The notes: generated by a model from the letters alone, not told the origin. DNA of 64,000 nt from Dehalococcoidia bacterium (GCA_963662615.2 CAXXSR010000002.1:384001-448000); one strand, 5' to 3'. Shown: positions 54,047 to 56,767, counted from the first letter of the stretch. Made by a program: numbers and translations.

Positions 54047-54161
54047 GGGGCTATCTTCCCGGCCGGCGGCAGCCGTGCCAAGGCGGGCGGTAGTGTCCTA
54101 GTTTGAGCCCGAGCCCGCCCGCCGAGACGTAATCCGGCCCTGAATGAAAAGTGCCAGACAG

Positions 54162-54983
54162 TCAGGCTGCCAGGCCCACCAAATCCGCCATCGTCCACTG
54201 CCGCGTTGTCACCCCCGCCGCGATCGCAGGCGTCGTCCGCAGCGTGCGATGGGGGCGGACGAAGTTGTACCACGCGAAGTGCAAGGCGACCGCCGCCTCC
54301 AAGTTCTCCCGCTTCTTGCTGAACGCATTGGTCAATCGGGTGAATCTGCGCTGCTGCATCCGCAGGGTGAGGTGGCTCCGCTCCACCAGCGACGTGGAGG
54401 TCCGGGCGAGATCGGAGTCGCCCACAATGATGTGCTTGTCCGCCGCCACCACGCGCCGGGGCGGGCTGTACCGCCCGCTACTTTGCTCCGACTCGTAGGA
54501 CTTTACGATGGTGGCGAAGTCCACCTGCCCGCCAAAGCTGGCTTCCACGGCGGTGACGTAGTGCGAGAGACCGTCCGCGCTCAACTGGATTCGGTTCGCC
54601 AGTCGCCAGGACAGATCGCGCATGAACCAATCCGCATCCCTGCGCGTGCGCTTGCCGACGTGGAAGGTCGGCACGATATTTGTCTCTGGGTCGAGCGCGA
54701 CCCAACACCAAGAATCGCCGGTTTCGAGGGGATCATCGTCGGGGCGGACCTGCGCCTCCTTCTTGCCGACATAGGTCCAAATCTCATCGACCTCGATGTG
54801 CTCACATTTCAAGTCACGCATGAGCACGTCCATGACCTCGCGGGAGGTCCGGCCTGCGCGCAGCATGAGCCGCGTGATCGTGTCCCGGTGGACGCCCGTC
54901 ATGCGCTCCACGGACCGGATCGACGTGCCCTCCACGAGCGCGCAGAGCACTGATTCTTGCTTTTCGGCCTTGAGTCGGTTCAT
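54162..54983 (-). CDS. IS1-family DDE transposase (HTH + DDE, no Zn finger)
   Basis: EG.SIRSVERMTGV HTH; EVDEIW, ADG..HY, VERSHLTLR..RRFTR.TNAFSKK. Confidence 0.92.
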   Translation of the reverse strand: MNRLKAEKQESVLCALVEGTSIRSVERMTGVHRDTITRLMLRAGRTSREVMDVLMRDLKCEHIEVDEIWTYVGKKEAQVRPDDDPLETGDSWCWVALDPETNIVPTFHVGKRTRRDADWFMRDLSWRLANRIQLSADGLSHYVTAVEASFGGQVDFATIVKSYESEQSSGRYSPPRRVVAADKHIIVGDSDLARTSTSLVERSHLTLRMQQRRFTRLTNAFSKKRENLEAAVALHFAWYNFVRPHRTLRTTPAIAAGVTTRQWTMADLVGLAA

Positions 54984-55003
54984 CAGCCGCCTGCTATCTT
55001 GAG

Positions 55004-55073
55004 TGGAGCGCCGGGGGATCGGACCCCGTGAAGCATGGATGTAAGGCCCAGCCCAGAGACCAACTCGCGCCCC
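55004..55073 (-). ncRNA. tRNA-like / tmRNA-TLD-like structure
   Basis: 7-bp acceptor stem GGGGCGC/GCGCTCC plus discriminator A; perfect 5-bp T-stem CGGGG/CCCCG with 7-nt loop TCCGATC; no D-stem; no encoded CCA. Confidence 0.6.
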
Positions 55074-55078
55074 ATGCA

Positions 55079-55112
55079 GAACGGCGACGCGCGGAGGGGC
55101 GCGTCGCCGTTC
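55079..55112. terminator. Perfect 14-bp hairpin right after the fic stop codon
   Basis: GAACGGCGACGCGC-GGAGGG-GCGCGTCGCCGTTC; no clear U-tract. Confidence 0.6.
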
Positions 55113-55115
55113 GTT

Positions 55116-56225
55116 CTACGTCGTTGCGGAAAGCTCTTTTTCCTCAAGTCCCGCTCCGATGACCTTCCGGAACTCGTCATCGATCGTGTACCTCGTATTC
55201 TTGCCCCGGCCTTTCCGCATCACGATGCCAGCCTCCACCATGTCTTTCAGATCGGAGAAGGCGACTGATTGCGATGCATTAGTCAGTCGGGCATAGGCGG
55301 ATGTCGAGAGCGGGCTCAGGTCAAGCATGAACATAGTTCCGAGCGCTTGTCGCGCGTTGAACGTGCCCTCCAAGTGCTCCACGAACGAGTCCTTCTCCCT
55401 GTTGAATCTGACGACTGCCCTCTCCAGCTGCGCCGATGCCATGCTCAGCATCGTTTGATGAAACTCAACGAATGGCGACGTATCCACCGCCTCGCTGAAA
55501 TTCTCACCCTGGGTATCTCTGAGCGTGTCGTAATACTTCTGCCGTTGATCCCAGATGCTCTGACTCACCGATAACAACCCATCCGCTGACCAGTCGGTGA
55601 GGGTCAAGATCGTGTCGGCCAGCAGACGAGCGGTCCGACCGTTGCCGTCCTCGAATGGGTGGATTGAAATCAGTCCAAAGTGTGCCATTGCTGCGACGAT
55701 GGGCGACGGATAGGTGCCTTCAGCCATCCACTGCTGGATGTCCGCCACAAACGCTTCCATCAGTTCGGGCACGAATGCGGGCGGGGGGGGCCGGTATCGT
55801 ATGTCGCGTGTCTGTGAATCAACGATCAGCGCCGGTCCGACGCGGTATCGCCCACGCCGCTGCGCCTGCTGGCCAGGAAGACCCTTGAGGATCAGCGAGT
55901 TCATCGTGCGGATCAGTCCTTGGTCGATCTTCACGGACTGATCGCCCACTAGCTGATCGACGAGTTCGTACGCCGCTTGCAGGTTCGTAATCTCTATCTC
56001 TTCCGGCTCCGACTCGTCCGCCCCCTCGACCAACACCAGCAGCGCTTGCTGTTCGCCAATCTGGTTCCCCTCAATGGCCGTGGAGGTATGGGCATTGATG
56101 TACCGCGCCTTCTGGCGGAAGTACGCCTCAAAGCCGGGTGGAACGAGCGTCCGGATGACGTACAATCGGTCGCGGAGGAAATCGACGTCCTGGCACTCGT
56201 CGTTGCAGGTCATTGTGAGTTTCAT
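55116..56225 (-). CDS. Fic-family protein with N-terminal inhibitory motif and C-terminal winged helix
   Basis: HPFEDGNGRTAR, STAIEGN, C-terminal DL..MV..G....G.G..TRY; start could be 56255. Confidence 0.92.
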   Translation of the reverse strand: MKLTMTCNDECQDVDFLRDRLYVIRTLVPPGFEAYFRQKARYINAHTSTAIEGNQIGEQQALLVLVEGADESEPEEIEITNLQAAYELVDQLVGDQSVKIDQGLIRTMNSLILKGLPGQQAQRRGRYRVGPALIVDSQTRDIRYRPPPPAFVPELMEAFVADIQQWMAEGTYPSPIVAAMAHFGLISIHPFEDGNGRTARLLADTILTLTDWSADGLLSVSQSIWDQRQKYYDTLRDTQGENFSEAVDTSPFVEFHQTMLSMASAQLERAVVRFNREKDSFVEHLEGTFNARQALGTMFMLDLSPLSTSAYARLTNASQSVAFSDLKDMVEAGIVMRKGRGKNTRYTIDDEFRKVIGAGLEEKELSATT

Positions 56226-56342
56226 CGCCGTGCTCCCGTCTGAATATTCTCTCACGCAACCAGCATATACGTATATTCGTTCCCGTCAATGGTAAATGGA
56301 GGTTCTTAGCCGGAATATGCTGGTAATCGCCGGGCAGGCGGG

Positions 56343-56645
56343 ATGACTGAGACGAACACCGACGCCCTGCACCGCGCCATCCGCGACCTCCACGGCTGCG
56401 AGAGCCGCTGGGTAGAGGCCGTGCCAGTCACCGAGACGTTTGAGGGACAGACCGTCTGGGAAGGCGCTGTCCAGGTCTTTGACCTGATCGACCACCCCAC
56501 GGCCAAGCGCGCCTACGCCTGGTCCCATCCCACAGACGACGAATCGGGGCCGCGGCGCTACGTCGCCGTGCTCCATGAGGGGCCGGTGAACTCACCGCGC
56601 AAGGCGGTCCAAGCGGCGATTGTCCAAGAGCAGCGGGGGGGATAG
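56343..56645 (+). CDS. Small hypothetical protein at the right end of the IS
   Basis: 100-aa ORF with globular-protein composition (LHGC, VWEG.V.VF, AYAW, SP..AV.AAI), ending just inside the TIR. Confidence 0.8.
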   Translation: MTETNTDALHRAIRDLHGCESRWVEAVPVTETFEGQTVWEGAVQVFDLIDHPTAKRAYAWSHPTDDESGPRRYVAVLHEGPVNSPRKAVQAAIVQEQRGG

Positions 56646-56703
56646 CGATGGATTGCCCAAATTGCGCTGCCAAATTAGGACACTACCAAGGCGGGCGTCC
56701 TGA

Positions 56704-56733
56704 TTGACCGGGGAACGGCGAAACTGGTACGCT
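56704..56733 (+). promoter_or_regulatory. Sigma70-type promoter of the hrcA operon
   Basis: TTGACC (56704) - 18 bp - TACGCT (56728), preceded by a TGn extension. Confidence 0.6.
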
Positions 56734-56740
56734 TTTGGCG

Positions 56741-56767
56741 TTGGCACTCTCATGTCGAGAGTGCCAA
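56741..56767. promoter_or_regulatory. CIRCE element (HrcA operator)
   Basis: TTGGCACTC-N9-GAGTGCCAA perfect inverted repeat upstream of hrcA. Confidence 0.95.

Follow-up and report, generated by a model that had tools for sequence, protein, structure and literature searches.

The window that we analysed is a stretch of 64,000 nucleotides (nt) from the genome of a Dehalococcoidia bacterium (GCA_963662615.2, CAXXSR010000002.1:384001-448000; G000:C2:384001-448000 in our numbering). Towards its right end, an insertion sequence (IS) with passenger genes lies between a ketoacyl-synthase gene on the left and the hrcA and grpE genes on the right, the latter two identified by Pfam. The element spans positions 54089-56687 (2,599 bp) and contains three open reading frames (ORFs) between terminal inverted repeats (TIRs) of 17 nt. 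They encode a transposase of 273 amino acids (aa), a Fic protein and a 100-aa protein, and a tRNA-like RNA (TLS) is located directly upstream of the transposase gene. We conclude that this is very probably an intact IS1-family transporter IS (tIS), belonging to a single-ORF branch without zinc finger, which transposed recently between the ketoacyl-synthase gene and hrcA and produced a 9-bp target duplication. The backbone of the element consists of two ends beginning with GGTAGTG, the DDE transposase, the TLS upstream of the transposase and the gene for the 100-aa protein at the other end, and the middle part, flanked by the small ORF and the TLS, is a cargo slot. A cargo-carrying IS1-family element is in itself of a known kind; the exchangeable slot seen among relatives, the conserved tRNA-shaped RNA with the 100-aa protein of unmatched fold, and the joint conservation of a rare transposase codon and a matching RNA triplet go beyond the basic IS1 call.

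The left TIR (54089-54105, plus strand; GGTAGTGTCCTAGTTTG) and the right TIR (56671-56687, minus strand; reverse complement GGTAGTGTCCTAATTTG) match at 16 of 17 positions, and ends of the same GGTAGTG... type bound more than 40 related elements. Identical copies of the 9-bp sequence AAGGCGGGC are found on either side, at 54080-54088 and 56688-56696. The initial annotation, made from the sequence alone, had reported 17-bp TIRs starting with GGTAGTG, an exact 9-bp duplication, a single-ORF transposase at the left end, a Fic gene and a small ORF inside, and an interior of lower GC content, and all these features were recovered. The transposase ORF has its 3′ end towards the left TIR and stops 56 nt short of it, and the GC content of the element is 0.613 (0.581 for the Fic gene) versus 0.683 for the genome, with values of 0.72 and 0.69 in the two 2-kb flanks. 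A repeat-finding tool returned a direct repeat of 12 nt, CCAAGGCGGGCG, at the element edges; the excess over 9 nt arises where outer bases happen to be the same as bases of the TIR. Since relatives mostly duplicate 8 bp, the ninth base of AAGGCGGGC may be due to chance; however, a 483-bp derivative in the same genome has an exact 9-bp duplication as well.

The genome search with the TIR and the transposase that had been proposed with that annotation revealed one transposase copy and five sites matching the full 17-nt TIR with at most two mismatches in 2.66 Mb, all in a transposon context: the two ends of the window element, the two ends of the 483-bp derivative and one remnant. This distribution indicates that the TIR is not a chance repeat. 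The derivative (G000:C2:547904-548386) lacks a transposase and is flanked by the duplication TTGACGGGC; its ends are identical to those of the window element (17/17 and 19/19), with about 60 internal nt in common. The remnant, on another contig (G000:C1, approximately 1649228-1651700; L024, 5229-7656), comprises a solo end GGTAGTGTCCTAGTTTG and a paralogue of the small ORF (74–77% at the aa level). Two IS3-type (rve) ORFs, of which one is degraded, adjoin it directly, and no IS1-type transposase is present within 12 kb; it is a disrupted second copy. The target duplications of the window element (AAGGCGGGC), of the derivative (TTGACGGGC) and of a related element in genome G004 ((C)TGGCGGGC) share the pattern G-R-C-GGGC, which hints at a target preference, with three sites compared and all of them in GC-rich genomes.

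The transposase gene (54162-54983, minus strand) encodes a DDE enzyme with an N-terminal helix-turn-helix (HTH) and no zinc finger; its catalytic residues D66, D137 and E201 do not vary in any of the 45 homologues aligned. IS1 is the best family in both libraries, with 25.6 bits for Pfam PF03400, a narrow pass of the gathering cut-off (24.1), and 56.9 bits for NCBIfam NF033558 (transpos_IS1), below its equivalog cut-off of 100. The zinc-domain model NF050000 does not match the window transposase and does match L042, a member of a sister group (L040-L042, L047-L053, L075) characterized by an N-terminal CxxC...CxxC extension. L042, the member of this group that was scanned, fits the IS1/IS1595 zinc-domain model and reaches 96.8 bits with the transpos_IS1 model. 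Because IS1 is the best family and the protein begins at the HTH without a zinc finger, we assign the element to the single-ORF IS1-family type, in agreement with the branch initially proposed. The classical layout of IS1 (insA/insB′, zinc finger, -1 frameshift) is absent, the gene being a single ORF that begins at the HTH. Elements of the IS1 family have ends of the form GGnnnTG and duplicate 8–9 bp of target (ISfinder criteria); the corresponding features here are GGTAGTG and 9 bp, with 8 bp in relatives. The ISfinder subgroup that lacks the zinc finger and carries passenger genes is presumably the one named ISMhu11. Traits of this type found here are the missing zinc finger and the position of the cargo 5′ of the transposase, on the same strand. 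The name ISMhu11 had no match in the literature searched, where 'Mhu11' matches only unrelated papers. Transposition would be carried out by the DDE enzyme, through either a cut-and-paste or a copy-out pathway. Two related loci show unusual arrangements. In L053 (6001-6830), where ARAGORN names the upstream tRNA-like gene tRNA-Stop(tta), the transposase frame stops early at a TAA and the family C-terminus resumes in another frame; the gene has either suffered a frameshift or relies on a programmed one. In L123 (G406:C1:2328000-2342000), three related transposase genes within 5 kb, several TIR pairs and inverted flanks correspond to nested elements.

The right end of the element is located 16 bp upstream of the -35 box of hrcA. 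The promoter-like region of this gene (56704-56767, plus strand), identified from the sequence and from consensus motifs, comprises a -35 box TTGACC at 56704, a -10 box TACGCT at 56728 and a controlling inverted repeat of chaperone expression (CIRCE) at 56741-56767, and was left intact by the insertion. In five genomes of the same family but of other genera (G004, G008, G015, G020 and G023), both flanks are adjacent, 134–190 bp apart. The G004 site reads CCAAGCCAGGCGG in place of the CCAAGGCGGGCG of the window, followed by the conserved TTGACC...TACGAT promoter-like pair and CIRCE. The locus is present in 20 public metagenome runs from 7 studies, and four runs from four studies were examined for junction contigs. 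Contigs crossing the filled left junction were found in all four runs. In one of them (X17), a contig passes directly from 54077 to 56686, so that 2,608 bp are missing, with an ambiguity of 12 nt; this corresponds exactly to the predicted empty site. A second contig of the run spans the filled junction. This joint is good evidence for an empty allele, without being conclusive. It removes the whole unit, in which, as in a tIS, the passengers lie inside one pair of inverted repeats and one target duplication. The insertion is therefore considered recent, as initially suggested, since the duplication is exact, the ORFs are intact, the sites of same-family genomes are empty and the empty-site joint was observed in one of the four runs. 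The co-occurrence of empty and filled alleles in public metagenomes makes this locus a natural system in which mobility could be measured.

Two side observations concern this region. One contig of another run (X19; depth 3.8) omits 67 nt, from 54936 to 55002, a stretch that includes the beginning of the transposase gene, the spacer and the adjoining 2 nt of the TLS. The small ORF reads outward into the hrcA-grpE promoter and CIRCE, 16 bp past the element end (56697-56767), and read-through from the element could alter expression of this heat-shock operon.

The transposase was found in 57 of 401 genomes of the class, and the closest homologues outside the window are encoded by G070 (60% aa identity) and G176 (56%). 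G004 carries the same element at another locus, with the same order of parts, an 8-bp duplication TGGCGGGC, 68% nt identity, a broken transposase and a Fic protein 69% identical in aa to that of the window. The elements of G070 (2,818 bp; 8-bp duplication AACACGTC) and G176 (3,025 bp; 8-bp duplication CGCGCGGG) have the same ends, a small ORF at the far end (65–69% aa) and a tRNA-like RNA directly upstream of the transposase. When the window element was compared with them by BLAST, only two blocks aligned: the small ORF, and a segment that runs from base 1 or 2 of the tRNA-like RNA through the transposase. The layout TIR, transposase, tRNA-like RNA, cargo, accessory ORF and TIR that had been predicted for the window element is thus shared, with homology confined to the backbone blocks. 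In the slot between them, the window element and that of G004 have Fic, G070 has a P63C-domain protein of 386 aa, and G176 has a 282-aa protein that matches no Pfam family.

More distant relatives of the transposase are encoded by 54 loci from Acidobacteriota, Verrucomicrobiota, Planctomycetota and other phyla. TIR pairs with exact 8-bp duplications were delimited at 19 of 36 loci in one set and 12 of 20 in another, for elements of 1.9–6.3 kb, and 42 delimited elements formed the set used for RNA counts and cargo diversity. We scanned 111 ORFs from 25 relative elements against Pfam. Apart from transposases of the element itself, matches were obtained for P63C (three elements), an N6_N4 methylase-Mrr fusion (two), SocA/Panacea (two) and HTH with peptidase M78 (ImmA/IrrE) (two, once beside DUF4411), and also for PemK/MazF, Gp49 (HigB-like) with HTH, DUF433, NYN, DUF4145, an SDH-type protease, an aspartyl protease, an MtlR-like protein and other transposases. 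Fic was found in G004 only among these 25 elements. With a fixed backbone and an exchangeable slot, such small elements are a plausible shuttle for toxin-antitoxin, restriction-modification and phage-regulator genes across several phyla.

The alternative is that Fic and the small ORF are dedicated accessories of a fixed-content unit, the elements of G070 and G176 being unrelated and cargo exchange only apparent. It would fit the same Fic and part order in the window and G004, a 30%-identical Fic beside a transposase remnant in G053, and a Fic gene located 1 kb from a small-ORF homologue, without TIRs, in G100. We consider it very improbable, since G070 and G176 share TIRs, small ORF, TLS and transposase with the window element and yet carry unrelated genes in the slot, and since many different cargo sets are found across the 42 delimited relatives. 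The gene-capture platform put forward in the initial annotation stands, accordingly, as a pattern in which cargo varies within one backbone, and not as a mechanism of capture. Cargo exchange may involve recombination within the conserved backbone blocks.

Several observations nevertheless weigh against an IS1-family element that was recently mobile and exchanges its cargo. No exact empty site was found among the genomes examined, where only orthologous intergenic regions of other genera are available, and the empty-site joint of X17 is a single contig with a depth of 4.6, 37 nt on its shorter side and 90% likeness. The element is single-copy in this genome, which bears on its activity in this strain, and none of the 23 public runs listed is an RNA run, which bears on transcription. 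The PF03400 score barely exceeds the Pfam threshold, and the NCBIfam score falls short of its cut-off, although IS1 is the best family by far. Members of the small-ORF family occur without ends or transposase in G100 and G359, so that the small ORF may be a frequent passenger and not a transposition factor. Finally, the window and G004 carry the same cargo, indicating that content can stay fixed over long periods.

The Fic gene (55116-56255, minus strand) encodes 379 aa from a GTG codon, or 369 aa from the likely start ATG at 56225, and matches PF02661 at 3e-16. Residues 199-210 form the active-site motif HPFEDGNGRTAR and residues 58-63 the inhibitory-helix motif STAIEG, in accordance with the consensus sequences HxFx(D/E)GNGRxxR and N-terminal (S/T)xxxE(G/N). 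An N-terminal motif of the STAIEG type is the mark of auto-inhibited class II Fic proteins, and by its motifs the window protein would be an AMP-transferase of this class. A promoter-like site, TTGACG-16 nt-TATGCT (56262-56289, minus strand), matches the consensus in the divergent intergenic region upstream of the gene; the scan found one such site versus 0.5 expected.

The small ORF (56343-56645, plus strand) is directed outward, towards the right end. Its conserved 100-aa product has no match in Pfam or NCBIfam, and none of its 413 database homologues is named (56–76% identity among the matches listed). The predicted structure, a helix, four strands and a helix, has a predicted local distance difference test (pLDDT) score of 90. 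In fold searches with this model, nothing rose above background: the best Foldseek match in the PDB had an E-value of 0.35, and the best VIA match a Z-score of 5.2, with generic cystatin/PepSY-like rows. The family is present in 9 of 401 class genomes, and in five Verrucomicrobia loci the ORF is found directly downstream of the transposase. No description of such a protein as an IS1 component was found in the literature searched. In locus L129 (G100:C4:1054-3426), a homologue (54% aa) has on either side a short gene whose product by eye resembles RRM-type RNA-binding proteins, and the 30%-identical Fic 1 kb downstream, with no IS ends, is a second instance of Fic and small ORF together.

The TLS (55001-55073, minus strand) covers 73 nt. 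Its acceptor stem comprises 7 bp (GGGGCGC/GCGCTCC, with a G3:U70 pair) and its T stem 5 bp, with a loop of 7 nt; the RNA also has A73 and, internally, the motif CCTTACAT, and its 3′ tail is CTC, not CCA. A spacer of 17 nt, read from the sequence, separates it from the transposase ATG (54984-55000, minus strand). On its other side, a perfect GC-rich hairpin of 14 bp (55079-55112, minus strand) occupies the gap between Fic and the TLS, leaving 3 nt to the stop codon of Fic and 5 nt to the TLS. This hairpin has no U tract and was not called as a terminator; an equivalent one precedes the TLS in G004, G070, G176 and G008. A canonical tRNA or a known RNA family was rejected for positions 54984-55115, where ARAGORN predicts no gene and Rfam gives no match at E-values up to 1. 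A tmRNA fragment was likewise rejected, since ARAGORN locates the host tmRNA elsewhere in the genome and the likeness is that of a generic acceptor/T-arm. The 3′ half of the TLS resembles the host tRNA-Ala(tgc).

A covariance model with two helices (R1) was built from five copies of the TLS. In 944 kb of loci the model finds nine copies, five of which are the training sequences, and scores the window copy at 81.8 bits. In the model-fitted alignment of these nine sequences, pairing is kept in 99.1% of the cells, both partners have changed in 6 of the 12 pairs, and the covariation score was reached in 0 of 500 shuffles; G3:U70 is present in 8 of the 9. The TLS is thus a conserved acceptor/T-arm minihelix supported by covariation, not a canonical tRNA. 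An RNA-first search of 151 class genomes produced four matches, three of them beside the transposase (G000, G070 and G176). The fourth, in G008 (C1:1112364-1112436; L132, about 1480-1580), is an orphan hairpin and minihelix with G3:U70 and an ACCA end (41.6 bits), without transposase or ends within 3 kb; the hairpin-bearing sequence repeats there about 150 nt downstream. In other subgroups, odd tRNA genes with the anticodons act, tac, tat, tga, tgt and tta are predicted by ARAGORN upstream of the transposase. Among the 42 delimited elements, ARAGORN at default settings detects such a gene in 7 and a minihelix finder in 11, compared with 5 ARAGORN hits in 362 kb of flanking sequence. The TLS is therefore recurrent among relatives, and not universal.

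A motif in the TLS loop, TAC followed by A, is invariant in all six elements compared (window, G004, G070, G176, L030 and L028), in the variants CCTTACAT, CTTTACAC and CTCTACAC, and ARAGORN reports the L028 homologue as tRNA-Val(tac). In the window transposase, a single GTA is found among 24 Val codons, at codon 160 (54504-54506), beside the invariant K161. The same alignment column has GTA in G070, G176, L028, L029, L030, G004 and G353, and GTG in L027, where no TLS was detected. Over six sequences, GTA accounts for 9 of 137 Val codons, and 6 of these 9 fall in this column. Sixty-seven columns have an identical degenerate residue in the six sequences and four of them keep one codon; in the other three, this is the commonest codon for the residue. 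In the small ORF, taken as a control, GTA has no fixed position. These sequences being related, the TAC/GTA counts are not independent. Three further readings of the loop were tried and rejected. Suppression of transposase stop codons by a UUA or CUA loop finds no consistent match among the stops present (TGA, TAG, TGA, TAA, TAA), and the tRNA-Stop case of L053 is, by eye, better explained by a frameshifted gene. Extended antisense pairing between the loop and the mRNA near codon 160 is reduced to GUA/UAC in all six elements, the flanks varying (by eye). A codon match at column 205 in L023 (ACT) and L043 (TGA) is within chance, since Ser codons vary widely at this position.

If the TLS is transcribed with the transposase mRNA, it may influence how the transposase is expressed, and could do so as a signal for RNase P processing or by way of its UAC triplet and the fixed GUA codon 160. 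The first possibility, which we favour only tentatively, is that the TLS serves for processing and insulation: the hairpin-TLS leader would be cleaved by RNase P and by enzymes that process tRNA 3′ ends, which would separate the transposase mRNA from cargo or read-through transcripts and set its 5′ end and stability, and the UAC/GUA match would have another cause. The smallest substrate of RNase P is a minihelix of acceptor and T arm, and only these two arms covary. The position of the RNA is also suggestive, 17–31 nt upstream of the start codon and 5–8 nt after a strong hairpin in the window, G004, G070 and G176. By eye, G070 and G176 have promoter-like sequences (TTGACA-17-TATAAT or TAGATC) upstream of this hairpin; in the window, the space between Fic and the TLS is too short for a promoter, and the transposase must therefore be co-transcribed with Fic. 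In L030 the RNA comes after a cargo gene located on the opposite strand, which fits a 3′-end or processing role better than a transposase leader. On the other hand, processing leaves the TAC-A motif, the G3:U70 wobble and the fixed GTA codon unexplained, and about two thirds of the related elements have no detectable TLS.

The TLS could instead be a private decoding partner of the transposase. It would then be a tRNA of non-canonical type, with UAC as anticodon and an identity either of the alanine type or dual (G3:U70, A73), and would read GUA codon 160, thereby gating or recoding transposase synthesis. The invariant TAC-A, the tRNA-Val(tac) call in L028, the rare GTA fixed in one column of eight sequences as the only conserved codon that is not the commonest, the GTG of L027, where no TLS was detected, the negative control in the small ORF and the recurrence of G3:U70 are all in line with this idea. 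It is doubtful, however, for several reasons. The window RNA is not recognised as a tRNA by ARAGORN or Rfam, neither the D arm nor the anticodon stem is conserved, and constrained folding gives different structures for different homologues. The best 7-nt loop in L109 sets TAC at positions 35-37, not 34-36, and U33 would be a C in L108 and L030. The host encodes its own tRNA-Val(tac), L029 has GTA and no TLS detected in the stretch examined, the column 205 match is within chance and the counts come from related sequences. The TLS could also be a functionless remnant, either a decaying tRNA-Ala-type pseudogene or a former integration site, as the likeness of its 3′ half to the T arm and acceptor of host tRNA-Ala(tgc), a middle part that is not a cloverleaf and the presence of 3′ CCA in some copies only might indicate. 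This is quite improbable, given that homology between elements with 56–60% transposase identity begins at the TLS start, that both helices are kept by compensatory changes, and that the RNA-first search found the TLS in 4 of 151 genomes, beside the transposase in three of the four.

The most far-reaching interpretation is that a widespread cargo-carrying branch of IS1 possesses a private tRNA-shaped RNA of alanine type (G3:U70), whose UAC reads or senses the GUA codon fixed in the catalytic core of the transposase, gates transposase translation or recodes Val to Ala independently of the host tRNA pool, and marks the edge of the cargo slot. We regard this whole as unlikely. The conservation of a rare synonymous codon together with a matching RNA triplet yields a hypothesis that can be tested directly, namely that the element itself encodes a translational control of its transposition. 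No description of an IS1-linked tRNA-like RNA or of a link with a rare codon was found in the literature searched.

Comparison with known systems places each part of the element in context. The TLS resembles a tRNA-Ala minihelix in its acceptor stem beginning with GGGG, its G3:U70 pair, A73, and its 5-bp T stem with 7-nt loop. As in the tRNA-like domain of tmRNA, a standard anticodon arm is absent; unlike tmRNA, the TLS is a contiguous RNA of 73 nt with no tag reading frame or pseudoknots. In contrast to both, the window TLS does not encode CCA. The Fic protein resembles class II Fic proteins of the SoFic type (3eqx/3zcn) in its HPFEDGNGRTAR and STAIEG motifs and its size of about 370 aa, and among solved Fic structures the best match is 4rgl (E-value 4e-15; 3.6e-6 for SoFic). 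It differs from SoFic in its score (46 bits against an equivalog cut-off of 550) and in being encoded by transposon cargo.

Classical IS1 is 768 bp long, has insA and insB′ joined by a -1 frameshift and encodes a zinc finger, features that the window element lacks. The element agrees with the single-ORF, presumably ISMhu11-type subgroup of IS1 in its DDE transposase matching IS1 models, its GGnnnTG ends, its 8–9-bp duplication, the missing N-terminal zinc finger and passengers upstream of the transposase. IS derivatives with passenger genes are termed transporter IS in a published account (PMC9330008). The window element corresponds to a tIS in having its passengers within one pair of IS ends, one transposase and a single flanking duplication. 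It differs from a tIS in that its cargo occupies a defined slot between two conserved backbone blocks, and in that the cargo across its relatives consists mostly of toxin-antitoxin, restriction-modification and phage-type regulator genes, and not of resistance genes.

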